In this document: positions 11,164 through 27,082 of the stretch, one piece after another
Position numbering within the stretch: the first letter of the stretch is position 1
How the letters are laid out: each line of letters begins with the position of its first letter
Source of the DNA: an uncultured Acidobacteriota bacterium
Lineage (GTDB): Bacteria > Acidobacteriota > Terriglobia > Acidiferrales > UBA7541
Assembly (NCBI GenBank): GCA_963744235.1
Contig: CAVUSU010000008.1
Coordinates: forward strand, 96,277 to 128,276
Direction of reading: 5' to 3'
Length of the DNA stretch: 32,000 nucleotides
The notes under the pieces: generated by a model
What the model was told of the DNA's origin: nothing
Database searches by the model: none
Seen by the model: the letters and a program-made list of their open reading frames with translations, nothing else
Program-made: the position numbers and the translations under genes

Positions 11164-11367
11164 CCGCATCCTCCAAAAGTTATGGATCTTGGGCGGGCGG
11201 TAGCATCTCCCTTGCTCGCTTCCCAAGTCAAGCCGCGGGCCGCGAGCGGGCGATTCCGCGAGTTTCAATTTGCGTCCGCGCCCCGGTTTACGCTAGCGTG
11301 GTTTGATTCGGATGCGTATCGCAGGCTCGGCAGGCGAGCGCTACGATTTCGATTCGGCGGCACGTCC

Positions 11368-13472
11368 ATGAAAATTCTCTACAACTGGTTGAAGGAATTC
11401 GTCGAGGTAACGGCACCCGCGAAGGAGCTGGGTTCGCGGCTCTCGCTCGCCGGCGTCGCCATCGATTCGATTGAAGAGACGTCCGCCGGCCCCGTGCTCG
11501 ATGCGGAAATTACGTCAAACCGCCCCGATTGCCTCGGCCACTATGGGATGGCGCGCGAAGTGGCGGCCATTTACCGGCTGCCGGTGAAGCCGGTTCAGCC
11601 GAAGCTGAAGGAGTCCGCGGAAAAGGCCGCGGATGCCGTGCGGGTGGGAATCGAAGCGCCCGATTTGTGCGGCCGCTTCACGGCGCGCGTTGTGCGCGGC
11701 GTCAAAGTTCAGCCATCGCCGGATTGGCTTCGCCAGCGCCTTGCTGCAATCGGCCAGAACTCGATCAACAACGTGGTGGATGTCTCCAACTACGTGATGT
11801 TCGAGCTTGGCCACGCCTCGCATGCATTCGATTTCGATAAATTGAACGAGCACCGAATCACCGTGCGCCGCGCGAAGCCCGGCGAAAAAATTCGCACGCT
11901 GGACGGCATCGAGCGCACGCTCACGAAAGATATGTGCGTGGTCAGCGACGCAACCCATGCGGTGGGGATCGGCGGGCGTAATGGGCGGCGCGGAAAGCGA
12001 AATCGGCTTCAGCACGCGGAACATTCTGATCGAGTGCGCCTGGTTCGATCCCATCGCGATTCGCCGCGCGTCGAAGGCGCTCGGTTTACGCACCGAAGCG
12101 TCGTACCGTTTCGAGCGCGGCGCCGATCCGGAGATGGCGGAACTCGTCTCGCGGCGCGCCGCCGAATTGATTCAGCAATTGGCCGGGGGCGAGATTCTGG
12201 CCGGGGTTGTGGACGTCTATCCCGGGCGGAAACAGCCGCTCAAGATCGAATTCGCGCGGAAAGAACTTCTGCGAGTGATGGGCGCGGACGTGCCCGACCG
12301 CGACATCGAAGAAATTCTCGGCGCACTGGGGTTCCACCCGGTTCGCATCGATGCGAATCGTGGCAGCGCGGGTTCGCTTGCGGCGCGGTGGGAGTGCACG
12401 CAGCCATCCTGGCGTCACGACGTCGCGCGCGGTGTCGATTTAGTGGAGGAAGTGGCCCGGCATTACGGGTACGACAAATTCCCGCCGCGACTTCCGCCCG
12501 CCAAGCAGCCGGCGCATCGCCTGCCTCATGCGGAGGCGATGGACCGCCTGCGCGAACGCCTTGTGGCTCTCGGCTATCAGGAAATCGTCGAAATTCCCCT
12601 CGTCGATCCAAAACGCGATGAGCTGTTCCGTCCTGAAAATGTGACGCCGGCTGTGATCGGCAATCCGCTCGCGGAAGACGCATCCGTGATGCGCTCGACG
12701 GGGATTGTCAGCATGGTGGGCGCGATCGAATGGAACCTGAACCACGGGCAGCGAAATCTGCGGCTCTTCGAAATCGGCAAAGCATACGAAGTGCGCAACG
12801 GCGAACCCATCGAAACGCCGGTCCTCACGCTCGGGGCGACCGGCCTCGCGCGGCAGAAAACGATTTACGAAGACGCGCGCGAGTTTTCGTTTGCGGATCT
12901 GAAAGGCGACCTCGACGACACTGGAGCGCTCGCGGGTGGATTGTCATGGCAAGCGAACGGTCCCGGCTGGCTCGCTTCGGCGCGATCCGCACAGATTTCG
13001 CTCGCCCATCGAAATGGAGGCTCAAGCGGTGACAAGCCGGTCGGCGTCGTGGGCCAGCTGGCTCGGCGGATCGCCGACGAATTCAAGCTGCGCCAGGATG
13101 TTTTCGTCGCGGAACTGCAGCTCGAGCCTCTGCTCGCAGGAATCGAGTCTGCGCGCGCCGCCTTGCGTTTCACGCCCCTGCCCCGCTTTCCCGGGGTCGA
13201 ACGCGATTTCTCGCTGGTGCTCGACGACGGAGTTTCGTTCGCAAGCGTCGCGGAAACGATTCGTTCTCTCGGAATCCCGGAGCTTCAAAGCATCGAGCCT
13301 GCGGACCTTGTTCCGCGGAGGCCAAGTGCCGCCGGGAAAAGTCTCGCTGATGATTCGCGTGACGTTCCAGAGCGCGCAGGCGACCCTCACGGACGCGCAG
13401 CTTGCCGATTTTTCCTCGCGCATCGTTGAGGCGCTGCAAAAAAACCTCGGCGCCACCTTGCGCGCATCCTGA
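11368..13472 (+). pseudogene. pheT: Phenylalanine--tRNA ligase beta subunit, frame-disrupted at two sites as sequenced (~11971 and 13310)
   Basis: Frame 1 from ATG 11368: MKILYNWLKEFVEV...DATHAVGI. Frame 2 from ~11972: AGVMGGAESEI...(B3_4/B5/core)...LQSIEPADL. Frame 3 from 13311: FRGGQVPPGKVSLMIRVTFQSAQATLTDAQLADFSSRIVEALQKNLGATLRAS* (FDX-ACB domain). Each junction is restored by removing one G. Confidence 0.9.
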
Positions 13473-13948: not shown

Positions 13949-14191
13949 ATGCCCCGTTGCAAGCCATTTCGGTTTGTTGTCGTTTCTCTGGCGCTCCTGA
14001 CGCTAATGGCGGCGGTGACGCTTGGCGGCGTCTGGCACCACCATCCAAGTTCTTCAGAAGCAAACTGTTCGATTTGCCATTTGAACCACCAGCCCATGGG
14101 TCAGCCCCTCGCGGTTGACCGCTCTCCTGTTTCGCCCCAATCGGAACGAAGCCTGAACCTCCGGAGCCATTTTTCGCGCCCACTCCGCTAG
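13949..14191 (+). CDS. Small membrane-anchored His-cluster/CxxCH protein (copy 1), upstream of czcC
   Basis: 80-aa ORF with a basic N-terminus, one hydrophobic helix (FRFVVVSLALLTLMAAVTLGGV), then WHHHPSSSEANCSICHLNHQ. It is paralogous in architecture to ORF 22291-22572, co-directional with czcCBA, and ends 118 nt before ATG 14310. Confidence 0.6.
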   Translation: MPRCKPFRFVVVSLALLTLMAAVTLGGVWHHHPSSSEANCSICHLNHQPMGQPLAVDRSPVSPQSERSLNLRSHFSRPLR

Positions 14192-14309
14192 TCCGCCACG
14201 TTCCCGCTCGCGCCCCACCGTCCGCTTAATCTGTTTCTCGGCGATCCCGTGGCTGCCTCGCGGCCGATCAATTCACGTGTAAGTCCCAGAGGTGAAGGTA
14301 AAAGCGCCT

Positions 14310-15596
14310 ATGCGTATACAACGTGTACGTCTTGTATGTTCCGCTGTTGCTGTGTGTTTTGCTGGATTGACGTTTGGCCTGTCGCTTTCGGCACAAACGC
14401 AAGGGCCGGTGCGAATTACGCTCGACCAGGCGATTCAAATGGCTCTCGAGCACAACCACACCCTGCTGGCCGCCCGCACCACGATCCAAGAGAGCGAAGC
14501 GCAGGAAACGACGGCAAATTTGCGGCCAAACCCGACTCTTTCGGGCGACGCGCAGTTCTTGCCGTTCTTCGAGCCGGGAAATTTCAATTCCACCTACATT
14601 GAGAACAACGCGCAGTTCGACATCGGCATAGGTTACTTGTTTGAGCGCGGCAGGAAGCGCCAGCATCGCTTGCAAGCGGCAAAGGATCAGACGGCGGTAA
14701 CCACCTCAACGGTCTCCGACAACGAGCGCACTTTGATGTTCCAGGTGGCCTCGCAGTTCATCAGCGTGCAGCTTGCCGAATCGACGCTCGATCTGGCCGA
14801 GCAGGATATGAAGAGCTTCCAAAATACGGTGGACATTAGCCAGGCGCGCTACAAAGCAGGCGACATCAGCGAGGATGATTTCCTGAAGATCAAGCTTCAA
14901 TTGCTGCAATTCCAGACCGACGTCTCGCAGGCCACGCTCGCGAAGATGCAGGCGCTCGCCGGTCTGCGGCAATTGGTGGGGTATCAATCGGTGTCAGCCG
15001 ATTTCGATGTGGCTGGTGACTTCGATTATCAGGTGTTGAAGCTCGATCTCGAGGATCTGCAAGCGGCAGCACTACGCGACCGCCCGGACCTGCGCGCGGC
15101 GGTGCAGGGTGTGGCAGCGGCGAAAAGCCAGTACGAGTTGGCCAAGGCAAACGGAAAGCAGGATGTGACCGCGTCAATCGACTACACGCACACTGGAGAC
15201 GTCAACAGCGCCTCGCTTTTCGGCAACATCGCCCTGCCGATTTTCAACCGCAACCAGGGAGAAATCGCCCGGACGAGATATGCCATCACGCAGGCGCAAG
15301 AGCAGCAGTTGGCGGCCAGCGACCAGGTGATGACCGACGTGCTGGACGCCTATGAAGGGGTTCGCGACAACGACAAGGTGATTGCGCTCTATCGCTCGGG
15401 CTACCTGGATGAAGCGAAAGAAGACCGTGACATCAGCGACTACGCGTACAAGCGCGGCGCCGCAAGCCTGCTCGATTTTCTCGACGCCGAGCGCAGCTAT
15501 CGCGCGACGCAGCTCGCCTACCGCCAGTCGCTAGCGGCATACCTCACGGCGGTAGAACAGCTTCGCGAAGCTGTGGGAACGAGGTCTTTGCCATGA
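14310..15596 (+). CDS. czcC: TolC-like outer membrane factor of heavy-metal RND efflux system (CzcC family)
   Basis: Signal peptide MRIQRVRLVCSAVAVCFAGLTFGLSLSAQ, then the typical OMF start (ITLDQAIQMALEHNHTLLAAR) and two OEP-type repeats. The stop overlaps the next gene's start (ATGA 15593-15596). The ORF could also start at GTG 14292. Confidence 0.85.
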   Translation: MRIQRVRLVCSAVAVCFAGLTFGLSLSAQTQGPVRITLDQAIQMALEHNHTLLAARTTIQESEAQETTANLRPNPTLSGDAQFLPFFEPGNFNSTYIENNAQFDIGIGYLFERGRKRQHRLQAAKDQTAVTTSTVSDNERTLMFQVASQFISVQLAESTLDLAEQDMKSFQNTVDISQARYKAGDISEDDFLKIKLQLLQFQTDVSQATLAKMQALAGLRQLVGYQSVSADFDVAGDFDYQVLKLDLEDLQAAALRDRPDLRAAVQGVAAAKSQYELAKANGKQDVTASIDYTHTGDVNSASLFGNIALPIFNRNQGEIARTRYAITQAQEQQLAASDQVMTDVLDAYEGVRDNDKVIALYRSGYLDEAKEDRDISDYAYKRGAASLLDFLDAERSYRATQLAYRQSLAAYLTAVEQLREAVGTRSLP

Positions 15597-16768
15597 AAAC
15601 GGCGCGAACAATCAACCGGCGAGATTGGGGAATCGCTGTGTCGCTTGCAGTCGCATGCGTGCTGGCCGGCTGCAGTTCAGGCGAGCGCGCGAGCGAAATG
15701 ACCTCGTATTCAGCCAAGGAAACGAAATCGGAGACACCTGAGCTTTTTACGATTCCGCAAGACCAGATGTCGCACGTGCAAGTGGTGAGTGTAGCGCCGC
15801 AGACGCTGACGCGCTCGCTGCGCTTGACCGGGGCGGTAGCCTACAACGCGTTTCACACGACGCCGGTAATTACGCAGGTGGGCGGCCCCGTGAGCCGCAT
15901 CCTGGTGGTACCGGGCCAGCGAGTGCGCGCGGGCCAGCCGCTGCTCATGATCAGCAGTCCCGACTATTCGCAGATGCGCGCGGCCTATTTGAAGGCGCGG
16001 GACGTCTATCGCGTGGCGGACAAGAACTATGCGCGAGCTCAGGACCTCTACGCACACAATGCCATCGCAGAACGCGACCTTTTGCAGGCCGAGTCCGACC
16101 GCATTCAGGCACAGGCCGATCTCGATGCGTCCGAGCAAGGCCTGAAGATTCTGGGCCTCACGAAGCCGGAGGATCTGGAGAAGATGCCGTCAACGCCGGA
16201 GATTCCTCTGCTGGCGCCGATCGCGGGCCAAGTGGTCGAGCGTGACGTCTCGCCCGGGCAATTGCTGACGCCGGGAACGACGCAGGCGTTCGTAATCTCG
16301 GACATGAGCACGGTGTGGATTCTGGCGAACGTGTATCAGGGGGATCTCTCTTACGTGAAGGTGGGCGACACTGTCTCCGTGACCACCGATTCCTATCCCG
16401 ACACCTTCCGAGGGAGGATTTCGTTCATCTCCCCGGCGCTTGATCCGAACACGCGAACGCTGCAAGCCCGGATCGTGGTCGACAACGCGGGCGAGAAACT
16501 GAAGAACAACATGTACTGCGTCGCGACAGTGACGGCCGGCATGGTGCAGAACGCGATCGCCGTGCCCGACGCGGCGGTGTTGCGCAACGATGAGAATCAA
16601 CCGTTCGTATACGTCGAGAGTGGGCCGAATCAGTTCGGCCGCAGGGCAGTTGAGATCGGGCCGAGCCAAGGCGGGGAAACACAAGTTCTGAAAGGGCTTT
16701 CGGCGGGAGACAAAGTAGTGGGAGACGGCAGCCTGTTTCTGCAGTTCGCCAATTCGTTCCAACACTGA
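15593..16768 (+). CDS. czcB: RND efflux periplasmic adaptor (membrane fusion protein, CzcB/CusB family)
   Basis: 391 aa with a lipobox-like LAGC, MFP strings (VVPGQRVRAGQPLLMISSPD; LLAPIAGQVVERDVSPGQ; ..RISFISPALDPNTRTLQARI..). Translationally coupled to czcC. Confidence 0.85.
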   Translation: MKTARTINRRDWGIAVSLAVACVLAGCSSGERASEMTSYSAKETKSETPELFTIPQDQMSHVQVVSVAPQTLTRSLRLTGAVAYNAFHTTPVITQVGGPVSRILVVPGQRVRAGQPLLMISSPDYSQMRAAYLKARDVYRVADKNYARAQDLYAHNAIAERDLLQAESDRIQAQADLDASEQGLKILGLTKPEDLEKMPSTPEIPLLAPIAGQVVERDVSPGQLLTPGTTQAFVISDMSTVWILANVYQGDLSYVKVGDTVSVTTDSYPDTFRGRISFISPALDPNTRTLQARIVVDNAGEKLKNNMYCVATVTAGMVQNAIAVPDAAVLRNDENQPFVYVESGPNQFGRRAVEIGPSQGGETQVLKGLSAGDKVVGDGSLFLQFANSFQH

Positions 16769-16782
16769 GGCCGCGAGCTTTC

Positions 16783-19700
16783 ATGATTCATCGGATCGTC
16801 CAGTTTTCACTCAACCAGCGGTTTTTGATCATGATGCTCACCGTGTTCATCGCGGTGGCGGGAGTCGTCTCGTTTCAGCGCATGCCGGTGGACGCTTATC
16901 CCGACCTTTCGCCGCCACGCGTGGAAATCATCACGCAGTGGCCGGGGCATGCGGCGGAGGAAGTGGAGCGGTTGGTGACCCTGCCGACCGAAGTGGAAAT
17001 GAACGGCGTGCCGAAGATGGAGATCCAGCGATCGATTTCGCTCTACGGCCTTTCGGACGTCATCCTGACCTTCGATGAGGACACCGATGATTATTTCGGG
17101 CGACAGGTGGTATTTCAACGGCTGAGCGAAGTGACGTATCCAACCGGCGTTACTCCAGGGCTGGCCCCACTATCGAGTCCTTCGGGGCTGGTCTACCGGT
17201 ACGTGCTGCAGAGCCCGGACCGCACGCCGCAGGAGTTGAAGACCTATGAAGATTGGGTGATCGAGCGCCAGTACAAGCAGGTACGCGGCGTGGCGGATGA
17301 CTCAGGGTTCGGCGGCACCGTAATGCAATACCAGGTGCTGCTCGATCCGGCGAAGTTGTACGGCTATCACATCACCGTGCCGCAGGTGCTGAACCAGCTC
17401 TCCGTGAACAACGCGAACACAGGCGGAGGATTCTACTCTCAAGGGGGGCAGTTTTATTACGTGAGAGGGCTCGGTCTCATCCGAGACGAGGCTGACGTAG
17501 GGAACATCATCGTGGGCACGCAGAACGGCGTGCCGGTGCGCGTGCGCGACATTGGTGAAGTGGCGATTGGCCACGCGCCCCGCCTGGGGGAATTCGGATT
17601 CAACAAAACGGATGACGCAGTGGAAGGCGTCATCATGATGCTGCGCGGCGAGCAAACGCAGAACGTGCTGCAGGGCGTCGAGGCGAAAACGAAGGATCTG
17701 AACGAGCATGTCCTTCCGCCCGACGTGAAAGTGGTGCCTTTCTACGACCGCAGCGACCTGGTGCGGCTGACGACGGACACGGTCGAGGCAAACCTGCTGC
17801 GCGGCATGGCGCTCGTACTGATTGTGCTGATCTTTTTTCTCGTGAGCTTCCGAGCGGCGGTGATCGTGGCGTTGACGATTCCGCTGGCCCTGCTCTTTTC
17901 GTTCATCTTCCTGCACGCGCGCGGCGTAGCCGCGAACCTGCTTTCGATCGGAGCCATCGATTTCGGGATCATCATCGACGGTACGTTGGTGATGGTGGAA
18001 AACATTTACCGTGAGCTCGGGCTGCGCGAGGGAAAGGAATACAACCTCCACGAAGTGATCCTGCAGGCGGCAAAGGATGTCGATCGGCCGATTTTCTATT
18101 CCGTGGCCGTCATCATCGCCGGTTACATCCCGATTTATGCGCTCAGCGGTCCGGCGGGCAAACTGTTTCATCCGATGGCGGACACGATGTCGATCGCGCT
18201 CGTCGGAGCTTTAATCCTGACCCTGACATTCGTGCCGGTGATGTGCTCAGCCTGGTTCCGGAAGGGCGTGCACGAGGCCAGGAACAAACCTTTCGAATGG
18301 CTGAAGAAAACGTATGGGGGGCAGTTGACCTGGTGCCTCGACCGCCCGAAAACGACGCTGATTGTAGCGACGCTGATTTTTGTCCTTACGCTGTTGCTCA
18401 TCCCGTTCATCGGCGGGGAATTCATGCCGCACCTCGACGAAGGCGCCATCTGGGTCCGCGCCACGATGCCCTATACGATTTCTTACGAGGAGGCCGCGAA
18501 GTTCAGCCCTCAGGTGCGCAACATCCTGATGAAATATCCGATGGTCACCGACGTCGGCTCGGAGCTGGGCCGCCCGGACGACGGCACCGACCCGACCGGG
18601 TTCTTCAACGACGAGTTTTACGTCGGCCTGAAACCGTACGGCGATTCTTCCTGGACGCAGAGCTCGATTCACAACAAAGCCGAGCTGACTGCGGACCTCC
18701 AGAAAAAGCTCGAGACGTTTCCTGGAGTGATCTTCAACTACACGCAACCGGCGGAAGACGCTGTGGACGAAGCGCTCACCGGGCTCAAAAGCGCGCTGGC
18801 CGTGAAAGTTTACGGCCAAGATCTGAATGTTCTTCAGCAGACGGCGCTCGAGATCAAGCGGCGTCTCTCCCAGGTACCCGGATTCACCGAACTGACCGTG
18901 GTCCGTGAGCTGGGCCAGCCGAGCCTGTTGGTTGACGTCGACCGAGACAAGATCGCGCGCTACGGCATCAACGTGGCCGACGTCGAAGCCATCGTGCAGG
19001 CAGCCGTAGGAGGGCAGGCAGCGACGCAGGTGATTCAGGGCGAGAAACTGTTCGATCTCGTTGTGCGGATGAAGCCGGAATTCCGCGAAGGCGCCCAGCA
19101 GATTGGAAGCCTGCTTGTCGGCACGCCCTCGGGCCAACAGATTCCTTTGAGTGAGCTTGCGAATATCCGCGAGGCGAGCGGCGCTTCGTTCATCTACCGC
19201 GAGAACAATTCGCGCTACATCGGCGTGCAATACAGCATCGAGGGGCGCGACCTTTCCAGCGCCGTCCAGGACGGCCAGCGCGCCATCGCGGACGTGGCAA
19301 AATCTCTGCCCGCTGGTTACTCGCTGGCCTGGGGCGGCGAATATAGCGAATTCCTGGAAGCCGAACACCAGATGGCAATCATCGGGCCGCTCGCGATGCT
19401 GCTGATCTTTATGATTCTCTTCGCGCTCTACGGAAACTTCAAATTCCCGGTTACGATCGCGCTCGGCGTCGTGATGACGGAGCCGGTCGGCGCGCTGATC
19501 GCGCTCAAGTTGACGCATACTCCCTTCAGCGTTTCTTCCGTGCTGGGACTGCTGGCCTTGCTCGGTGTCTCTGTGGAAACGGCCGTCATTCTGGTTTCGT
19601 TCATCAATAAGCTGCGGCTGGAGGGAAAGGATATCCGCACCGCCACGCGCGATGCTTCCTTGCTGCGGCTGCGTCCCATCATGATGACGGCGCTGGTGGC

Positions 19701-19872
19701 ATGCCTCGGCTTGCTGCCGGCCGCGCTTTCCACCGGCATCGGGTCCGATACGCAGAAGCCGTTTGCGATCGTGATCGTGGCGGGACTCCTTTCGCGGCTT
19801 CTCCTGGGCTTCTTCGTCAACCCGGTGCTGTATGAGATGGTCGCTCGCGAAGGAGACGTATTGCAGGTGTGA
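16783..19872 (+). CDS. czcA: Heavy-metal efflux RND transporter (CzcA/CusA family)
   Basis: 1029-aa intact ORF with RND architecture. TM4 reads AIDFGIIIDGTLVMVEN (DFG-DGx-VEN, the pattern I associate with divalent-cation HME-RND pumps). Confidence 0.92.
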   Translation: MIHRIVQFSLNQRFLIMMLTVFIAVAGVVSFQRMPVDAYPDLSPPRVEIITQWPGHAAEEVERLVTLPTEVEMNGVPKMEIQRSISLYGLSDVILTFDEDTDDYFGRQVVFQRLSEVTYPTGVTPGLAPLSSPSGLVYRYVLQSPDRTPQELKTYEDWVIERQYKQVRGVADDSGFGGTVMQYQVLLDPAKLYGYHITVPQVLNQLSVNNANTGGGFYSQGGQFYYVRGLGLIRDEADVGNIIVGTQNGVPVRVRDIGEVAIGHAPRLGEFGFNKTDDAVEGVIMMLRGEQTQNVLQGVEAKTKDLNEHVLPPDVKVVPFYDRSDLVRLTTDTVEANLLRGMALVLIVLIFFLVSFRAAVIVALTIPLALLFSFIFLHARGVAANLLSIGAIDFGIIIDGTLVMVENIYRELGLREGKEYNLHEVILQAAKDVDRPIFYSVAVIIAGYIPIYALSGPAGKLFHPMADTMSIALVGALILTLTFVPVMCSAWFRKGVHEARNKPFEWLKKTYGGQLTWCLDRPKTTLIVATLIFVLTLLLIPFIGGEFMPHLDEGAIWVRATMPYTISYEEAAKFSPQVRNILMKYPMVTDVGSELGRPDDGTDPTGFFNDEFYVGLKPYGDSSWTQSSIHNKAELTADLQKKLETFPGVIFNYTQPAEDAVDEALTGLKSALAVKVYGQDLNVLQQTALEIKRRLSQVPGFTELTVVRELGQPSLLVDVDRDKIARYGINVADVEAIVQAAVGGQAATQVIQGEKLFDLVVRMKPEFREGAQQIGSLLVGTPSGQQIPLSELANIREASGASFIYRENNSRYIGVQYSIEGRDLSSAVQDGQRAIADVAKSLPAGYSLAWGGEYSEFLEAEHQMAIIGPLAMLLIFMILFALYGNFKFPVTIALGVVMTEPVGALIALKLTHTPFSVSSVLGLLALLGVSVETAVILVSFINKLRLEGKDIRTATRDASLLRLRPIMMTALVACLGLLPAALSTGIGSDTQKPFAIVIVAGLLSRLLLGFFVNPVLYEMVAREGDVLQV

Positions 19873-19897: not shown

Positions 19898-21826
19898 CTA
19901 GAACTTTGCAGTCGCAGACGCCGAGGGAAGAAGCCGCGCAGAATTGAGGATAAACGCAAGCTCCGAGCTCACGTGAATGGAAGCTGCAAGCAGAGGATTC
20001 AGGAATCCGGCTGCCGCGAGACAAATCCCGATCGCATCGACAACCAGCGTGCCGCTGAAATTCTGATATATGATTCCGCGGCAGCGCCGCGCGATTTTTA
20101 GAGCCTCGACAAACTTCGTTAGGTCATTGCCAATCAGGACGATGTCGGCGCTCTCGCGAGCCACATCAGTCCCTGACCCCATTGCGACTCCGACGCTCGC
20201 CTGCAACAACGCCGGTGCGTCGTTGACGCCGTCGCCAATCATTGCGACGATGTGCCCTTCGGCGATAAGGCCTTTCACGCGTTCCAACTTCTGAGCCGGC
20301 AGCAGGTCAGCCGCCACCTCATCCACTCCCAATCCCTGGCCGACCGGCTCGGCAACCGCACGAGAGTCGCCCGTCACTAAGATCGTTCGAAGCCCCATCG
20401 ATTTTAGCGCCGTGATCGCGTCTCGGGATTCAGGTCTAAGCGTGTCTCCGATGCGAATCGTGCCGAGGAAATGCCCTGCCTTCGAAATGCCCACCTCGCC
20501 GCTGGACCCGTTCGAGTTCCATGCCGAGATTGTGATCCCCTGCTCTTCGAACAGCAGGTGATTGCCGATTACGATCATTTCGCCGCCGTCTTTGGCTACG
20601 ATGCCCTTCCCGGGCCTGTAGTCGAAGGTTTCCGGCGTTCGGCTGGCAATGCCAAGCTCGCGCGAACGATCGCGAATCGCCTTCGCAACCGGATGCTCGG
20701 AGCAGGACTCGGCAATGGCGGCTGTGTCGAGCAATATCTCAGAGCTAACACCGGGCACGGGGAGAATCTCGACGATCTCCGGCGTTCCGAAGCTCAAGGT
20801 TCCCGTCTTGTCGAGAAGAACCGTGTCTACGCGAGCTAGCGATTCGAGATGCCGGCCGCCTTTGATGATCACCCCTTGCCGCGCGGCTCGGCCGATTCCG
20901 CCCAAAATAGCTAGCGGAGTTCCCGCAGCAATTCCGCACGCGCCAGCGACGATGACCACCGAAATCGTCGAGCGCACATTGCGCGTGATCAAGAACGTCA
21001 TGGCCGCCGACGACAACGCGAAATATACGAGGTAGCCTGCCAGACGGTCGGCCAGCTTCTGAATGGGCGCGCGCGAGCGTTCGGCGCGTTCTACTTCCTC
21101 GATGATTTTTCCGTAGGTCGTGTCGCGCCCGAGTCGTTCGACGCGAATCTCGAGTGCTCCCATCTGATTCATCGTGCCGGCATACACAGTGGCGCCCGCA
21201 AGTTTTTCAGCGGGCAAAGATTCGCCGGTAATCGCGGCTTGATCGACAAAGGAATTGCCCGCAACTACCCTGCCATCCACAGGAATTCTGCTTCCCGGCC
21301 GCACGAGAACGACATTGCCGGCGCGAACCTGATCGATGGGCACATCCTGCCAGCCGTTGGGCTTTTGAACTGTAGCCGTATTCGGAAGCAGATGCAGGAG
21401 CCCTTGAATCGCCCGGCGCCCGCGTCCAACGGTGAGGTGTTCGAGAATCTCCGCGACGAGGACAAACAAAGTGATCACGAGCGCTGTGAAGATTTCCCGA
21501 ATGGCAAGAGCGGCGACGACGGCAATGGCCATCGACAGCTCCATTGTCATTCGGCGCTGGACGATGTTTTCGTACGCTTCGGCAAAGATCGGAAACGCAC
21601 CGATAGCAGTGCAAACCACGCCGAGCGCAATGATGTAAGGATTCGGGGTGCCTCGCAGAAACCAAATAGCGCCAGCAGCAGCCGCTACGAAAAGAACCCG
21701 GTTAAGGTCACGCCAGTTGAGCGGATTCGAGTGCTCGTGTACGTGGTCTTCCAAACCCTCGGGCTCGCTTTCCCGCTTGCGCTCGATTGGCGATTGCGAG
21801 TGAGGCCTTCCTACGGTATTGGACAC
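19898..21826 (-). CDS. P1B-type heavy-metal translocating ATPase, no N-terminal HMA domain, atypical TM4 motif
   Basis: 642 aa, GTG start at 21826. ITGES (actuator), DKTGT (aa 339-343) and GDGVNDAP hinge are present. The N-terminus has only a short His-rich patch (DHVHEH). VAGACGIAAGTP sits where CPC/SPC is expected. Confidence 0.88.
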   Translation of the reverse strand: MSNTVGRPHSQSPIERKRESEPEGLEDHVHEHSNPLNWRDLNRVLFVAAAAGAIWFLRGTPNPYIIALGVVCTAIGAFPIFAEAYENIVQRRMTMELSMAIAVVAALAIREIFTALVITLFVLVAEILEHLTVGRGRRAIQGLLHLLPNTATVQKPNGWQDVPIDQVRAGNVVLVRPGSRIPVDGRVVAGNSFVDQAAITGESLPAEKLAGATVYAGTMNQMGALEIRVERLGRDTTYGKIIEEVERAERSRAPIQKLADRLAGYLVYFALSSAAMTFLITRNVRSTISVVIVAGACGIAAGTPLAILGGIGRAARQGVIIKGGRHLESLARVDTVLLDKTGTLSFGTPEIVEILPVPGVSSEILLDTAAIAESCSEHPVAKAIRDRSRELGIASRTPETFDYRPGKGIVAKDGGEMIVIGNHLLFEEQGITISAWNSNGSSGEVGISKAGHFLGTIRIGDTLRPESRDAITALKSMGLRTILVTGDSRAVAEPVGQGLGVDEVAADLLPAQKLERVKGLIAEGHIVAMIGDGVNDAPALLQASVGVAMGSGTDVARESADIVLIGNDLTKFVEALKIARRCRGIIYQNFSGTLVVDAIGICLAAAGFLNPLLAASIHVSSELAFILNSARLLPSASATAKF

Positions 21827-21868
21827 GGCAGAGTCACCATCGCCAACCGAGCGCGATGGCCCGGCAGG

Positions 21869-22147
21869 CTATTTCAGATAGGTCCTCACAACGTCGATCA
21901 GTTCTTCCGCGGCTTCGGCTTCCGGCGAGCTCGCTTTGGTTTCCGGAGACAGGACGTGGAAACGAACGTGGCCCTCGATCACTTCCGCCATCAAGCCATT
22001 CAGTGCGCCGCGACAAGCAGCCATCAGTTGGAGAACCGAGGCGCATTCAGCTTCGTCGGTCAGCGCTCGCTCCAGGGCGTCGATCTGGCCGCGAATCTTC
22101 CGAACTCGAAGCAACAGTTTTTCCTGGTCGCGCTTTGTGTGTGCCAT
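21869..22147 (-). CDS. CsoR/RcnR-family metal-responsive transcriptional repressor (RcnR-type fingerprint)
   Basis: 92 aa, MAHTKRDQEKLLLRVRKIRGQIDALERAL... His3, Cys35, His60 and His64 were counted directly in the translation. SD GGAGG at 22158-22154. The stop lies 42 nt upstream of the ATPase start on the same strand. Confidence 0.85.
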   Translation of the reverse strand: MAHTKRDQEKLLLRVRKIRGQIDALERALTDEAECASVLQLMAACRGALNGLMAEVIEGHVRFHVLSPETKASSPEAEAAEELIDVVRTYLK

Positions 22148-22161
22148 CCTCGACCTCCATT

Positions 22162-22180
22162 TATACTATAGGGTAGTATA
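22162..22180. promoter_or_regulatory. Candidate RcnR-type operator: TATACTA-TAGGG-TAGTATA (contains TACT-N7-AGTA)
   Basis: Perfect 7-bp inverted arms at 22162-22168 and 22174-22180 with a G-tract spacer, 4 nt upstream of the regulator's SD. Geometry equals the E. coli RcnR site TACT-G6-N-AGTA (from memory). Confidence 0.55.
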
Positions 22181-22290
22181 GTAGTTCAAATCTCTTGTGG
22201 CCATTTCTAGACCGGCCAACAAGTCAACGGAAACGATTGCCCCCGTAGCCGCGTCTAAGTACCATACCTAGGGGGGTGTCCGTAACACCC

Positions 22291-22572
22291 ATGTCGCACC
22301 GCAGAACACATCGAGTGTTGGCCGCGCTTCTGGCGGGCTTCCTGCTCCTGTTTGCGTTTCAGGTTGCGACGCACACTCACGGCAATTCCGTCGGCGACGA
22401 TCATTGCCGGCTTTGCCATTTTTCGCACTCGGTGTCGCTCGACACTTCTGCTGCACCGGTTCTGGCCGCGCCGGCTGCCGTTGCCCGGTTGACGCTACCG
22501 GTTTCAACCGACCCCGCGATTGAGCTTCAATTTCACCAGCTCTCTTCCCGCGCACCTCCTGCATCGCTTTAA
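22291..22572 (+). CDS. Small membrane-anchored His-cluster/CxxCH protein (copy 2), upstream of the TonB-dependent receptor
   Basis: 93 aa from ATG 22291 (the ORF is also open from GTG 22276): MSHRRTHRVLAALLAGFLLLFAFQVATHTHGNSVGDDHCRLCHFSHS...SSRAPPASL. Same architecture as ORF 13949-14191. Ends 121 nt before ATG 22694. Confidence 0.6.
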   Translation: MSHRRTHRVLAALLAGFLLLFAFQVATHTHGNSVGDDHCRLCHFSHSVSLDTSAAPVLAAPAAVARLTLPVSTDPAIELQFHQLSSRAPPASL

Positions 22573-22693
22573 TCTTCGACTCGCGCTGTCTCCCAACTCC
22601 CGCCTCACAAAGTGAGGGCGGAGCCCAATCCATTTTCTAACCGGCACCGGCGCCGAAAACGCCCGGAGCACACTTAAATTGGGAGAGTGATTC

Positions 22694-25493
22694 ATGAAAC
22701 GCTTCGGCTTAATTATTCAGGGCTTTCTATTGGTGGTTTGCCTGCTGGTTGCCGGATCGCCCGCCAAGGCACAGACGGGAAACGCCGGCACAATTTCCGG
22801 AACGGTCACCGACCCGTCGGGCGGCGTGGTCGCGAACGCCACAGTCACCATTCACAACCCAGTCAGCCAGTATGAGCGCTCGGTAGCAACGGACAGCGCG
22901 GGAAATTTCAGTTTCCCGAATATTCCGTTCAATCCTTACCACCTGTCGGTATCCGTTACCGGATTTGCTCCTCATGCCGAGGATGTGGACGTTCGATCCG
23001 GCGTCCCGATCACTCTTAAGGTTGTGTTGAAACTGGCCGGTTCAGCCAGCACGGTTACGGTGGAAAGCGGAGGCGATCTGATCGAGAACGACTCAACCGC
23101 GCACACCGACATCGACAAAGCCATCGTCGACCGGCTGCCGCTTGAAAGCCCTTCGTCTTCCCTGAGCTCGCTCGTGACGCTCTCTAGTCCCGGCATTGCC
23201 GCAGACTCGAACGGACTCTTCCACGGACTCGGCGATCACGCCGAAAATTCATTCTCGGTTGACGGCCAGCCCATCACCGACCAACAGAGCAAAGTCTTCT
23301 CGAACCAGATTCCTGTCGATTCGGTTCAGTCCCTGGAGGTCATCGACGGCGCGCCGCCCGCGGAGTTTGGCGGCAAAACCAGCGTGGTCATCGTGGCGAC
23401 GACGCGGTCCGGTCTAGGAGAGACCGCGCCGCATGGCACCGTGACCGCCGACTATGGCACCTTCGGCACGTCGAACGTGGGTTTCGATCTAGCTTATGGC
23501 GGCCAGAAGTGGGGGAACTTCATCTCCTTAAGCGGATTGAACACCGGCCGGTTCCTCGATCCTCCCGAGTTCGTCGTGCTGCATGACCGGGGCAACGAAG
23601 AGAACTTCTTCGACCGCTTTGACCTCAAGCTTTCAGATATGGACACAATCCAGTGGAACTTGGAATCCACACGTTCTTGGTTCCAAACTCCCAATAGCTT
23701 CGACCAGCAACTCCAAACCTGCACGGTTTTGTCCGCAGAGTGCTTGAATGGCGACGCACCATATACCCCGGGTGCCGTTGTGGTTGTCCCGAACACCAAC
23801 ACTCCCCTGGGCCCCACCGATCAGCGCTCGCAAATCAGAACTTTCAACGTTGCGCCCACGTGGACCCGGCTCGTGAACTCGGATAGCGTGCTCACACTCG
23901 GCGCCTTCGTGCGGCACGACCAATATAACTATTACCCGAGCAACAATTTCTTCGACGACCTGGGCGCACTTCAGGATGAAACCGTTTCCCAGCTTCGCTT
24001 CCTGACGAACGCAGGTGTTCGCGGAGCCTGGTCGTACGTCAAGGGGATTCACAACATCAAGGTGGGAACTACCTACGAACAGACGTTCCTTACCGAGAGC
24101 GACCGGTTTGGAATCGTGAATCCCGCACTGCTCTCAGGAGCCGTCTGCCCGGATCCGACTAACCCCAAATGCACTCTCATACCATACGATTTGACCACTG
24201 GCGGGCAGCTCTACCACTACCGCCAGCACACCGACGTCAAAGAGCTTGCTCTCTATATACAGGACACCATCACCAAGGGATCTTGGACCTTCAATATCGG
24301 GATTCGCGGAGACCTCTATAACGGCCTTGATGCCATCTCCCGGCAGCCGGAGCCCCGCCTCGGCGTCGCCTACAACATCAAGCCAACAAACACCGTGCTC
24401 CGCGTTTCTTACGGTCGCACGATGGAAAGCCCGTTCAACGAGAACTTGATCCTTTCCGGCACCGGATGCGCCGACCCCGTAGTCAACGCGATCATGACCA
24501 TCGCCCAGGGCTTTGCCTGCAATTTCGGTACGGCGATCTCGGCGTTAGCTCCCGGCTTTCGCAATGAATTTCACGCCGGCCTCGAGCAAGCCTTCGGCAA
24601 ACACTTCGTCCTCAGCGGCGATTACATCTGGAAGTACACGCATAATGGCTACGACTTCAACGTTTTCGGTACCAGCCCCATTTTCCTTCCGATCGAATGG
24701 CACAACTCCAAGATTCCGGGCTTTGCCGTTCGCGGCAGCGTTCCGGATTTTCACGGCTTCACGGCGTTTATCGTGCTGTCGCACGTCGCCGCACGCTTCT
24801 TCCCGCCGGCAGTCGGCGGAATCACGCCTCCTCCGCCACCGGCTGTATTCCGCATCGACCACGACGAGGTGTTCAACCAGACCACCCACCTGCAATACCA
24901 GCCGTTCAAGCGCGCGCCGTGGATCGGGTTCAATTGGCGGTACGACAGCGGACTCGTAAGCGGCTTTGTGCCCTGCGAGGCCCAAACCGCAACCTGCTCG
25001 TTCTCGACGTCGAGTAATGATCCCGGGGTAGGGGGTGCGCCGCCGGTCGGACTAGCCAACATCCCAGCGGGTGACATAGCCTTGGTGAATAACCTCAACG
25101 GATTGCCTCTTACTGCCGATCAGGAGTTCGAGTCAGGTCTCACCTGTAACGGGGTCGGCGCGACGCCGACGACACCCATACCCACCGGGCCAGCTGTAAA
25201 CGGGTTTTTCGTATGCCCCGCGTCCCAGCTCCATTCCAACTTGGTGAAAATACCCGCGCCAAACTCCGAGAACGACGACCACAATCCGCAGCGCATCCAG
25301 CCGCGGAATTTGTTCGACGTATCCGTCGGTCACGACAATCTTGTTCAACGGCGACCGCTACAAGTGGAGCGTTCGCTTCACCGCCATCAACATCACCAAC
25401 AAAACCGCTCTGTACAACTTCCTCTCGACGTTCAGCGGCACGCACTACGTCACTCCCCGCGCCTTGACCGCCGAGCTCGGCTTCCACTTCTAA
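22694..25493 (+). pseudogene. TonB-dependent receptor-like outer membrane protein with CarboxypepD_reg N-terminal domain; one apparent 1-nt insertion at 25343
   Basis: Signal peptide MKRFGLIIQGFLLVVCLLVAGSPAKAQ, then a CarboxypepD_reg-like domain (GTISGTVTDPSGGVVANATVTIHN..DSAGNFSFPNIPFNPYHLSVSVTGF), plug and barrel. After ..VGHDNL the annotated frame becomes R/H/Q junk to 25609. The +1 frame reads FNGDRYKWSVRFTAINITNKTALYNFLSTFSGTHYVTPRALTAELGFHF* (terminal aromatic strand) and stops at 25491-25493. Confidence 0.85.
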
Positions 25494-25555: not shown

Positions 25556-25702
25556 CTCACCGTGCGAACTCATCTCTTCACGGCCCGAAACGGCGCCGTT
25601 TCTTGTTAGCACTCGGGAACCCGCAATCGCCAATTTGGACGTAGACGCGAACACCCATTGGCTCTATACGAAGAAGGTACTTTTGCAGGGCGGGAGGCGG
25701 CC

Positions 25703-27082
25703 GTGAACCAATTGCTGACTGAAACTGCCGTTCGAGCGGCGCGATACGCGGCGGGCATCCGGGGACGGCGAGTCGCACCGTCACCTGACGCCATAGCGCG
25801 CCTGGAAGCGCTCGGTGGCCCCTTGCCGTCGGCCCCTTGCGACCCTGCCGAGGTTTTGGCTCTGCTCGACGACGTGGGATCGCCTGCCACAGTTGCCACC
25901 ACTGGTGGGCGCTATTTCGGATTTGTTATCGGCGGCACCGTGCCCGCGGCCCTGGCGGCAAACTGGCTTGCCGGAATTTGGGACCAGAACGCTGCTTTCT
26001 CCGTTATGTCGCCGGTTGCGGCGAAGATCGAGGAAATTGTACTCGCTTGGATTGTTGATCTCTTGGCCCTGCCGGCGAACTGTGGCGTTGGCTTCGTTAC
26101 GGGCACCACGATGGCCAACTTCACAGCCCTCGCTGCCGCCAGAACAGCGCTGCTCAAGCGGGCGGGATGGGACGTTGAGGCAGATGGGTTGTTTGCCGCT
26201 CCGCCGATTAAGGTCGTCGTGGGTGACGAAGCTCACGTCTCTTTGCTGAAGGCGCTCGCCCTATTGGGATTGGGTCGTTCGCGCGTAACCTCGGTGCCGA
26301 CCGACGGCCAAGGCCGCATGATCGCCGATGCGCTGCCCCAGCTTGATGAACGCACTTTGGTGTGCATCCAGGCCGGGAATGTGAACACAGGAGCGTTCGA
26401 TCCCGCCAGGAACATTTGTGCGCGCGCTCACGAGGCCGGAGCTTGGGTCCACGTTGACGCTGCGTTCGGCTTGTGGGCAGCGGCTTCGCCGCGCTACGCC
26501 CACCTCTTGGACGGCGTGGGCGCCGCTGATTCTTGGGCGATTGATTGCCACAAGTGGCTCAATGTGCCCTACGACTCGGGGCTCGCCGTTGTTCGCGAAC
26601 CTGAGCATCTCCGAAGTTCAATGGCCGTGGCTGCCGCTTATCTACAGACTGGCGGCATGCGTGAACCCTGCCATTACACCCCCGAATCCTCGCGGCGCGC
26701 GCGCGGAATCGAACTCTGGGCGGCAATTCGGTCCCTCGGACGCGACGGCCTCAAGGAATTGATCGAGCGCAATTGTTCGTTGGCGAAGGTTTTTGCCGAG
26801 CGCCTCCACCAGGCCGGGTTCGAAATACTGAATGACGTGGTCTTGAATCAGGTTCTCGTGTCATTTGGCAGCGCGGATGAAACCAGACGCGTCATTGCCG
26901 AAGTGCAGAATGAGGGAACGTGCTGGTGTGGTGGAACCCAGTGGCATGGACGCACTGCAATGCGAATCAGCGTTTCAAGCTGGGTATCGGACCACGAAGA
27001 CGTCGAGCGAAGCCTTGCTGCAATTCTCAGAATTGCAAAATCGGTTCTGCCATCAAAACCCCACGCTGACGATTCCTGCTAA
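25703..27082 (+). CDS. Pyridoxal phosphate-dependent decarboxylase family protein (group II, fold type I)
   Basis: The ORF is open from TTG 25658. GTG 25703 is preceded by GGGAGG (25692-25697). It has strings typical of PLP decarboxylases (GFVTGTTMANFTALAAAR; HVDAAFGLWA; the PLP-lysine context DCHKWLNVPYDSG). Substrate unknown. Confidence 0.75.
   Translation: MNQLLTETAVRAARYAAGIRGRRVAPSPDAIARLEALGGPLPSAPCDPAEVLALLDDVGSPATVATTGGRYFGFVIGGTVPAALAANWLAGIWDQNAAFSVMSPVAAKIEEIVLAWIVDLLALPANCGVGFVTGTTMANFTALAAARTALLKRAGWDVEADGLFAAPPIKVVVGDEAHVSLLKALALLGLGRSRVTSVPTDGQGRMIADALPQLDERTLVCIQAGNVNTGAFDPARNICARAHEAGAWVHVDAAFGLWAAASPRYAHLLDGVGAADSWAIDCHKWLNVPYDSGLAVVREPEHLRSSMAVAAAYLQTGGMREPCHYTPESSRRARGIELWAAIRSLGRDGLKELIERNCSLAKVFAERLHQAGFEILNDVVLNQVLVSFGSADETRRVIAEVQNEGTCWCGGTQWHGRTAMRISVSSWVSDHEDVERSLAAILRIAKSVLPSKPHADDSC

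Follow-up and report, generated by a model that had tools for sequence, protein, structure and literature searches.

A predicted CruR/CutF-type (DUF2946) leader peptide upstream of a putative TonB-dependent receptor gene in an uncultured Acidobacteriota bacterium

CruR (Bp2923), a DUF2946 protein of Bordetella pertussis, is encoded by an upstream open reading frame (ORF) of the TonB-dependent transporter gene bfrG; copper sensed via its CxxC motif relieves the arrest of the ribosome at its C-terminal RAPP motif, which permits Rho-dependent termination in a spacer of 162 nucleotides (nt) (Roy et al., mBio 2022, PMC9426467). In CutF, the leader of the cutFOG operon of Rhodobacter capsulatus, copper-induced stalling melts a stem-loop that hides the Shine-Dalgarno sequence of cutO (Ozturk et al., mBio 2023, PMC9973294; bioRxiv 10.1101/2025.02.05.636593). 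Neither protein is detectable in vivo or acts in trans (PMC9426467, PMC9973294), and a survey found CutF-like ORFs upstream of genes for outer-membrane efflux proteins (OEP), resistance-nodulation-division (RND) pumps and TonB-like proteins, not all of them copper-specific (PMC9973294; bioRxiv 10.1101/2025.02.05.636593). Here we analyze a leader ORF of 93 amino acids (aa) located directly before a putative TonB-dependent receptor gene in a 32,000-nt stretch of DNA (referred to as the window) from an uncultured Acidobacteriota bacterium (GenBank assembly GCA_963744235.1, contig CAVUSU010000008.1, positions 96,277 to 128,276). The mechanism class was described in 2022-2025; what is new is its acidobacterial member. 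All sequence hallmarks of the CruR/CutF family are present in this ORF, and we assign it to the family because of its match to Pfam PF11162 (DUF2946), the CxxC motif, the RAPP motif near the stop codon, the spacing of 44 residues between the two, the N-terminal helix and the position before the receptor gene.

The leader ORF (ATG at 22291, stop codon TAA at 22570-22572, plus strand) was found with the start, the stop and the translation given for it in an earlier, sequence-only reading of this DNA. It encodes MSHRRTHRVLAALLAGFLLLFAFQVATHTHGNSVGDDHCRLCHFSHSVSLDTSAAPVLAAPAAVARLTLPVSTDPAIELQFHQLSSRAPPASL, which starts with MSHRRTHR, contains CRLCH and ends with SSRAPPASL. The comparison with PF11162 yielded 24.0 bits, a marginal pass at the cut-off of 23.7; six of seven leader orthologs score 24.2-27.9, and the remaining one, a truncated call (P0001), scores 22.1. 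Seven close homologs are 75-96% identical to the leader. Among nine orthologs of equal length the variable columns are distributed over codon positions 1, 2 and 3 as 31/22/71, and within the SSRAPP segment the third positions differ in five of six codons with the amino acids unchanged. Because of this codon-position bias and these synonymous changes, the peptide itself appears to be the target of selection, and the pattern indicates that the ORF is a real translated gene.

The N-terminus of the predicted peptide is basic (MSHRRTHR) and is followed by a hydrophobic helix (codons 9-27, 22315-22371; mean Kyte-Doolittle value 2.32), which could be an export signal or a membrane anchor and for which the positive-inside rule suggests an N-in/C-out orientation. 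AlphaFold2, run with the family alignment, placed this helix at residues 3-26, with a mean predicted local distance difference test score (pLDDT) of 91-98 over the first three blocks of 10 residues; the confidence of the model is confined to this part (predicted template-modelling score, pTM, 0.42), and the pLDDT falls to about 50 at residues 51-70. The helix is followed by a candidate metal site, H28-x-H30...C39-x-x-C42-H43-x-x-H46 (codons 28-47, 22372-22431), in which the CxxC motif is C39-R-L-C42 (codons at 22405-22416). The RAPP arrest motif occupies codons 87-90 (22549-22560), and only three codons (ASL) separate it from the stop; 44 residues lie between CxxC and RAPP.

An exhaustive profile search for the leader family returned 53 representatives at 50% clustering, and the search with the family alignment reported 250 matches, many of them annotated with PF11162 or called DUF2946 at source and one of them from Candidatus Acidoferrum. 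In the 55 sequences that contain both CxxC and R[AG]PP, the spacing between these motifs is 44 residues in 46 cases, 43 in six and 45 in three; with three exceptions the arrest motif reads RAPP or RGPP, and it is followed by 1-7 residues in 54 relatives and by 12 in one. An alignment of 36 diverse relatives (24-45% identity to the leader ORF) exhibits only five invariant columns, C39, C42, R87, P89 and P90, while H28, H30 and H46 are conserved in at least 90% of the sequences. The stretch between the metal site and RAPP is constant in length and variable in sequence, a pattern that we read as the signature of a sensor-spacer-arrest module and not of a folded protein.

Analysis of the genomic context was based on 20 fetched loci (labelled with L numbers below), comprising 13-14 close ones and six distant ones with 24-33% identity; the related contigs derive from uncultured Acidobacteriota. 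Scans of genome contigs and metagenome contigs with back-translated patterns, which are specific to the close subfamily, gave only four and five loci, respectively. In all 20 loci the leader, whose absence from orthologous loci had been considered in the sequence-only reading, is retained, and a CarboxypepD_reg/Plug receptor gene is located directly downstream on the same strand, at a distance of 121 nt in the window and 117-137 nt in the six distant loci. The genes upstream differ. The leader directly follows an RND gene in seven distinct close loci (L002, L006, L008, L009, L011, L012/L013 and L014), while a P-type ATPase gene and a repressor gene are inserted between the RND gene and the leader in five (the window, the near-twins L003 and L010, L001 and L007). 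L004 has an unrelated ORF of 195 residues upstream of the leader, and in L005 the contig end is too near to read the upstream gene. Among the distant loci, a divergent RcnR-type repressor and a P-type ATPase stand beside the leader-receptor pair in L015, L016 and L018, and a different gene precedes the leader in L017 and L020. Because the upstream genes differ between loci, the constant unit is the leader, the spacer and the receptor.

The receptor gene (22694-25493, plus strand) starts with the ATG at 22694, as the sequence-only reading had it, and in its product a signal peptide is predicted, together with matches to CarboxypepD_reg (5.8e-19) and Plug (23.8 bits, just below the cut-off of 23.9; E = 6.6e-5). 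CarboxypepD_reg and Plug together with a signal peptide are the usual form of acidobacterial TonB-dependent receptors, so that the TonB-dependent identity proposed earlier is supported by the former domain and the near-cut-off match to the latter. The sequence searches identified neither a beta-barrel domain nor a solved structure matching the receptor, and the NCBIfam search with the receptor and the leader was uninformative. The receptor Shine-Dalgarno sequence GGGAGAG (22681-22687, plus strand) is near-invariant in 12 aligned orthologs, only L007 having GGGGGAG.

The strongest C-over-G tract of the window lies across the 3' end of the leader. With C minus G computed in a 78-nt window, as in the Bordetella study, a C-over-G tract extends over 22474-22671 (plus strand) and peaks at 22533-22610 (46% C, 13% G), where the excess of +33.3 is the maximum on either strand of the 32 kb (mean 0.4, standard deviation 8.6). 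The excess sets in some 17-21 codons ahead of RAPP and weakens at two-thirds of the spacer length, and the locus-wide maximum is found at the same site in L001-L004 and in four of the six distant loci. In most loci, the last 90 nt of the leader ORF fold about as well as shuffled sequences, the z values lying between -2.2 and +1.3 (-2.1 in the window). This C-rich, G-poor tract resembles a Rho-loading (rut) site. The arrest motif and the tract are determinants that were not recognised in the sequence-only reading, although SSRAPPASL was quoted there.

The likeness to CruR extends over the whole arrangement: a small exported ORF comes first, before a TonB-dependent transporter gene, it contains CxxC, and its RAPP lies exactly 3 residues from the C-terminus. 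The number of intervening residues is 44 here and 45 in CruR, in agreement with the published CruR/CutF family spacing of 45 residues, within one or two. Both systems have a long structured spacer (121 nt here, 162 nt in CruR), a C-over-G tract that extends from the ORF's last third into the spacer, and low predicted fold content; in bp2923 an unstructured region at codons 117-123 precedes RAPP at 139 (PMC9426467). The leader differs from CruR in its length (93 versus 145 aa), its host (Acidobacteriota versus Betaproteobacteria) and its additional near-invariant histidines (HxH ahead of CxxC and, three residues past it, H46). The receptor, in turn, has an N-terminal CarboxypepD_reg domain, no PepSY_TM gene follows it, and its neighbors are genes for a CzcA-type RND pump, an RcnR-type repressor and a P-type ATPase and not copper genes. 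For CruR, the translation-coupled control of the transporter gene by the small ORF was demonstrated by experiment. With CutF it shares the DUF2946-type exported leader, the Cys motif and a C-terminal proline arrest motif. CutF acts only in cis, with a spacer RNA structure that involves the downstream Shine-Dalgarno sequence, as is predicted here; it carries CxxxC and PPP instead of CxxC and RAPP, requires elongation factor P (EF-P), has a multicopper oxidase under its control and, when stalled by the metal, switches the downstream gene on. Arrest motifs of the form R-A-P-P or R-G-P-P at the C-terminus of small exported leaders, encoded before the gene that they regulate, are also known from ApdA/ApdP and SecM (PMC7897499, PMC10951233), which monitor protein export and regulate Sec/YidC components, whereas the family studied here has a metal site and is found before metal transporter genes.

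We therefore propose, with a probability of about 0.6, that the leader is a CruR/CutF-type regulatory peptide encoded at the head of one operon with the receptor, and that its metal-modulated arrest gates Rho-dependent termination. During translation of the leader the N-terminal helix would leave the ribosome, which would then pause at R87-A-P-P90, three codons short of the stop. At this point H28, H30, C39, C42 and H46 would be about 47-60 residues from the peptidyl-transferase center, just outside the exit tunnel, and the occupancy of the His/Cys site by the metal could set the duration of the arrest. A ribosome arrested amid the C-rich tract (22474-22671) would block Rho, and the polymerase would read through the 121-nt spacer into the receptor gene. 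If the metal releases the arrest, the ribosome would terminate and leave, and Rho would load and stop transcription in the spacer, so that receptor synthesis would drop when the metal is plentiful. The core of the idea put forward in the sequence-only reading, translation-coupled metal control of the receptor by the small ORF, is thus upheld by the homology to CruR; the hairpins to which that reading assigned the control are not supported in this role, as discussed below. The lack of an alternative element, with no match to Rfam 15 at E <= 1 in 22100-22800 and no intrinsic terminator, was also counted in favor of a leader peptide.

Several observations weigh against this proposal. The Pfam score of the leader is marginal, and the mechanism is carried over from homology with one Bordetella system. 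The stalling of CutF is metal-induced and its output is translational (PMC9973294), so that polarity and output cannot be read from family membership. The locus holds two paralogous leaders, one before an exporter and the other before an importer. An efflux pump should respond oppositely, and because of this arrangement a simple CruR scheme cannot fit both leaders with the same polarity; at least one of them should depart from it. The 3' half of the C-rich tract contains the G+C-rich hairpins of the spacer, which would hinder the loading of Rho there, and the divergent RcnR-type repressor could supply metal control on its own.

The spacer is a conserved and structured RNA. Its mean pairwise identity is 78.5%, compared with 82% for the leader ORF and 36% for the 150 nt upstream, and its folding z is negative in 13 of 13 loci tested (-0.4 to -3.7). 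The minimum-free-energy fold of 22573-22700 has -40.8 kcal/mol (z = -2.5), and the consensus fold consists of two hairpins and an enclosing helix in which UCUCCCAA pairs with UUGGGAGA. Hairpin 1 (22597-22623; CUCC-CG-CCUCAC-AAA-GUGAGG-GC-GGAG, with CCGCC...GGCGG at 22600-22621) is part of both folds, and with its core CCUCAC-AAA-GUGAGG it is found where the sequence-only reading had placed it. The spacers of 15 of the 20 loci, four of the six distant ones among them, contain a CCGCC-N5-14-GGCGG stem, compared with four matches on both strands of the whole window, and differences between orthologs (U to G and G to C) shift the register and leave the stem intact. Because this stem recurs across subfamilies, the hairpin is a conserved feature of the family. 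Hairpin 2 (22644-22669; GC-CCGG-CG...CGCCCG-GA-GC), also present in both folds, keeps its stem and varies in its loop (CCGAAAA, TTTGAAGA, TTTTGAAAA), and one-sided G-U changes are seen. Covariation of the hairpins, to which the sequence-only reading had looked for confirmation, was not demonstrable by RNAalifold and pair counting among 9 and 12 orthologs, whose column identity of 87-88% makes them too alike for a test either way; a single compensatory pair was found, and shuffles matched the observed values in 177-221 of 500 runs. An alignment of five distant spacers revealed four compensatory pairs in a first hairpin and an invariant CCGCC/GGCGG second one, which is suggestive, five sequences being too few for more. 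Hairpin 1 with the following ATTTTCT (22632-22638) was considered as an intrinsic terminator and ruled out: the U-run begins 9 nt past the stem, the T-run varies among orthologs (TTTT, TTCC, TCTC, TCCC), and the terminator scan of 21800-22800 reported no site, with 1.1 expected in shuffles. The hairpins are probably structures at which the polymerase pauses or stops, or which stabilize the RNA.

The same leader might also act on translation, as in CutF and SecM, with arrest at RAPP or termination past it opening a helix that hides the receptor Shine-Dalgarno sequence and thus allowing the receptor to be translated, an output for which CutF is the precedent (PMC9973294) and which may be combined with control by Rho. 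This helix is the enclosing one of the minimum-free-energy and consensus folds, between 22589-22596 (UCUCCCAA) and 22679-22686 (UUGGGAGA, which contains the Shine-Dalgarno sequence), with outer pairs from 22578. In the window the Shine-Dalgarno sequence has a probability of being unpaired of 0.05, a value as low in only 3.5% of shuffles, and the best fold pairs its region with the 1-20 nt past the leader stop in five of seven independent loci. In the other 16 of 17 loci, however, the sequestration does not significantly exceed that of composition-matched shuffles (fraction at least as paired 0.07-0.87) and is no greater than the C/U-rich composition gives, which is also a difference from CutF. 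Moreover, the core of the anti-Shine-Dalgarno segment occupies nt 17-24 after the stop codon, some 30 nt on the 3' side of the P-site of the arrested ribosome and thus, by the geometry that we assume, beyond its reach, and there is only the one compensatory pair. We regard a CutF-type output as possible and clearly less probable than Rho control, to which we did not prefer it because the sequestration is not significant in these 16 loci. Much less probable is the scheme of the sequence-only reading, in which a hairpin 5' of the leader masks the leader Shine-Dalgarno sequence and hairpin 1 with ATTTTCT forms a translation-dependent, Rho-independent attenuator. Both hairpins and ATTTTCT are present where that reading located them, and hairpin 1 is conserved. 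The 5' hairpin (22274-22290), with the arms GGGUGU (22274-22279) and ACACCC (22285-22290), overlaps the G-run Shine-Dalgarno sequence of the leader (22271-22276); yet the folding of the region does not exceed that of shuffles (z = +0.82), and L002, L004, L005 and L007 have a weakened pairing or none, so that the masking role is not supported and the hairpin is probably not a distinct element. The attenuator, for its part, fails on the distant and unconserved T-run and the empty terminator scan, and no alternative anti-terminator pairing was found; this scheme is largely refuted by the sequence.

Two further explanations deny the leader a role in cis. It could be a stable, membrane-anchored or periplasmic accessory protein, for instance a chaperone that delivers the metal to the receptor or takes it from there. 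The signal or anchor helix and the conserved Cys/His site would suit such a protein, and DUF2946 genes show cofitness with a copper receptor in Pseudomonas fitness data, from which a role in copper uptake or homeostasis was proposed (bioRxiv 10.1101/072470). This is nonetheless unlikely: the free sequence and fixed length between the metal site and RAPP look like a spacer and not a fold, the AlphaFold2 confidence is low past the N-terminal helix, a RAPP motif this close to the stop would have no rationale in a chaperone, and CruR and CutF are undetectable in vivo and inactive in trans (PMC9426467, PMC9973294). Alternatively, the control could be purely transcriptional and the small ORF incidental, with the divergent CsoR/RcnR-family repressor (21869-22147, minus strand; PF02583, 1.1e-20) acting at the operator-like palindrome TATACTA-TAGGG-TAGTATA (22162-22180). 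Repressor and palindrome adjoin the leader-receptor pair even in the distant L015, L016 and L018, where the same repressor is accompanied by a related site GATACTATCCCGGAGTACAGTA, divergent from the pair; related palindromes (ATACTAT-N6-GTAxAGTA) occur in L001, L007, L015, L016 and L018. Nine of the 20 loci (the seven in which the leader follows the RND gene, L017 and L020) nevertheless keep leader, spacer and receptor without a divergent repressor. The palindrome of the window is situated about 55 nt upstream of the putative -35 element and overlaps the predicted minus-strand promoter of the repressor itself. Binding of the metal relieves the repression by members of the CsoR/RcnR family, a polarity that does not fit an uptake receptor. 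We consider this explanation very unlikely.

A putative promoter of the leader-receptor unit (22237-22265, plus strand) was read from the sequence, with a -35 element TTGCCC (22237-22242), a spacer of 17 nt and a -10 element TACCAT (22260-22265); 8 of its 12 positions agree with the consensus, a match under the threshold of the promoter scan. It falls into a block of about 45 nt (22225-22266; ...TTGCCCC.GT.G.CGCGTCTAAGTA.CAT) that is conserved upstream of the leader after the RND pump and after the repressor alike (loci including L006, L008, L009 and L011-L014), with -10 variants TACCAT and TAACAT and a weak sigma-70-type appearance. L002 is without this block, and its leader begins 40 nt past the stop of the RND gene.

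The paralogous leader (13949-14229, plus strand), the first CxxCH ORF of the sequence-only reading, with CSIC at codons 40-43, precedes a CzcCBA-type efflux operon. As read, it stops at 14191, and RAPP-SA-stop is found at 14209-14229 in another frame, since the sequence lacks 1 nt between 14127 and 14128. A BLASTP comparison of the two small ORFs of the window gave no significant match, and their paralogy was recognised only once the frameshift had been spotted and the intact copy from L002 (34-315) compared with the family profile (hhalign probability 97.4%, E = 1.6e-11); intact paralogous leaders of 93 aa with the 44-residue spacing are present in L002 and L006. The 3' end of the paralog (14152-14229) has the sixth-strongest C-over-G peak in the window, and its spacer of 81 nt has no unusual degree of structure (z = +0.89). 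In heading such an operon it resembles CC2720 (DUF2946), located directly before czrCBA in Caulobacter crescentus, and CzcI of Cupriavidus metallidurans (PMC4176598; PMC9973294); CzcI is without a C-terminal proline motif (PMC9973294), whereas the paralog (in its intact L002 and L006 copies) has RAPP at the family spacing.

Two more genes of the window are affected by single-base indels. Compared with L003, one extra nucleotide is present in the receptor gene near 25341 (region 25335-25493; caatcTtg versus caatc-tg), an insertion that puts the conserved C-terminus ...YVTPRALTAELGFHF* (...ELGFHF, ending at 25493) into another frame and extends the ORF as read by a junk tail to 25609; pheT, encoding the phenylalanyl-tRNA synthetase beta chain (11182-13429, plus strand), is split over two overlapping frames. 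Because the three indels hit conserved genes, assembly errors, for example from long reads, are more likely than pseudogenes. In the metagenome-assembled genomes the leader of L009 (6001-6222) and the RND gene of L006 (2812-5900) are also frameshifted, and the RAPP of the former can be recovered in another frame.

The efflux operon encodes an outer-membrane efflux protein (14292-15596), a membrane-fusion protein (15593-16768) and a CusA/CzcA-family RND pump (16783-19872), all on the plus strand; the pump contains the motif DFGIIIDGTLVMVEN, which we take to be that of CzcA, the divalent-cation type. It is followed on the minus strand by a heavy-metal P-type ATPase (19898-21826; TIGR01525), in which we found no CPC/SPC motif (the corresponding stretch is VAGACGIAAGTP) and no N-terminal metal-binding domain, and which thus provides no clue to the metal; similar ATPases, 533-659 aa long, are found with the module in L015, L016 and L018. 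The repressor has H3, C35, H60 and H64, presumably the ligand set of RcnR, and its best NCBIfam matches, FrmR and RcnR, are both below their cut-offs. In L019 (776-5776, Candidatus Acidoferrum), znuA (PF01297) and znuB (ABC-3) precede the leader-receptor pair on the same strand. No copper-specific gene is located near the pair in the window. Taken together, the pump of CzcA type, the RcnR-like ligands of the repressor, the znuAB genes of L019 and the additional conserved histidines suggest that the metal sensed by the leader may be a divalent one (Zn, Ni or Co) and not copper. Downstream of the receptor, in close loci only (L001, L002, L003), follows a pyridoxal phosphate-dependent decarboxylase (25658-27082, plus strand, in the window), for which the best NCBIfam matches, aspartate 1-decarboxylase PanP and diaminobutyrate decarboxylase, are both below the cut-off; L002 has an ORF of 312 aa and a gene for a c-type cytochrome between receptor and decarboxylase.

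We tentatively speculate, well short of the confidence given to the proposal of Rho control, that this branch of the family senses a divalent metal (Zn, Ni or Co) through a Cys2-His3 site and is used twice in one locus with opposite outputs, one paralog switching on the CzcCBA-type efflux and the other switching off the import receptor, with the downstream RNA setting the logic for one and the same RAPP module of 44-residue spacing. If so, it would be the first sensor of the arrest-peptide kind to respond to a metal other than copper, and the two leaders would be a natural side-by-side pair for studying how CruR-type arrest, which the metal relieves, and CutF-type arrest, which the metal induces, arise.

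The assignment extends the CruR/CutF class to Acidobacteriota, a phylum named in neither published survey, one of which lists Proteobacteria, Planctomycetes, Firmicutes and Deinococcus, while the other treats phyla beyond the three major ones as minor (PMC9426467; PMC9973294; bioRxiv 10.1101/2025.02.05.636593). The acidobacterial sequences form a coherent, receptor-linked subfamily with a His-rich site of its own and a conserved spacer hairpin, and their gene contexts hint that copper is not the only metal of the family. The pair of leaders before an exporter and an importer would be a convenient system for asking how one arrest module yields opposite polarity. In genome annotation, hypothetical proteins of this kind, 90-100 aa long and encoded before acidobacterial TonB receptor genes, should be taken for regulatory leaders.

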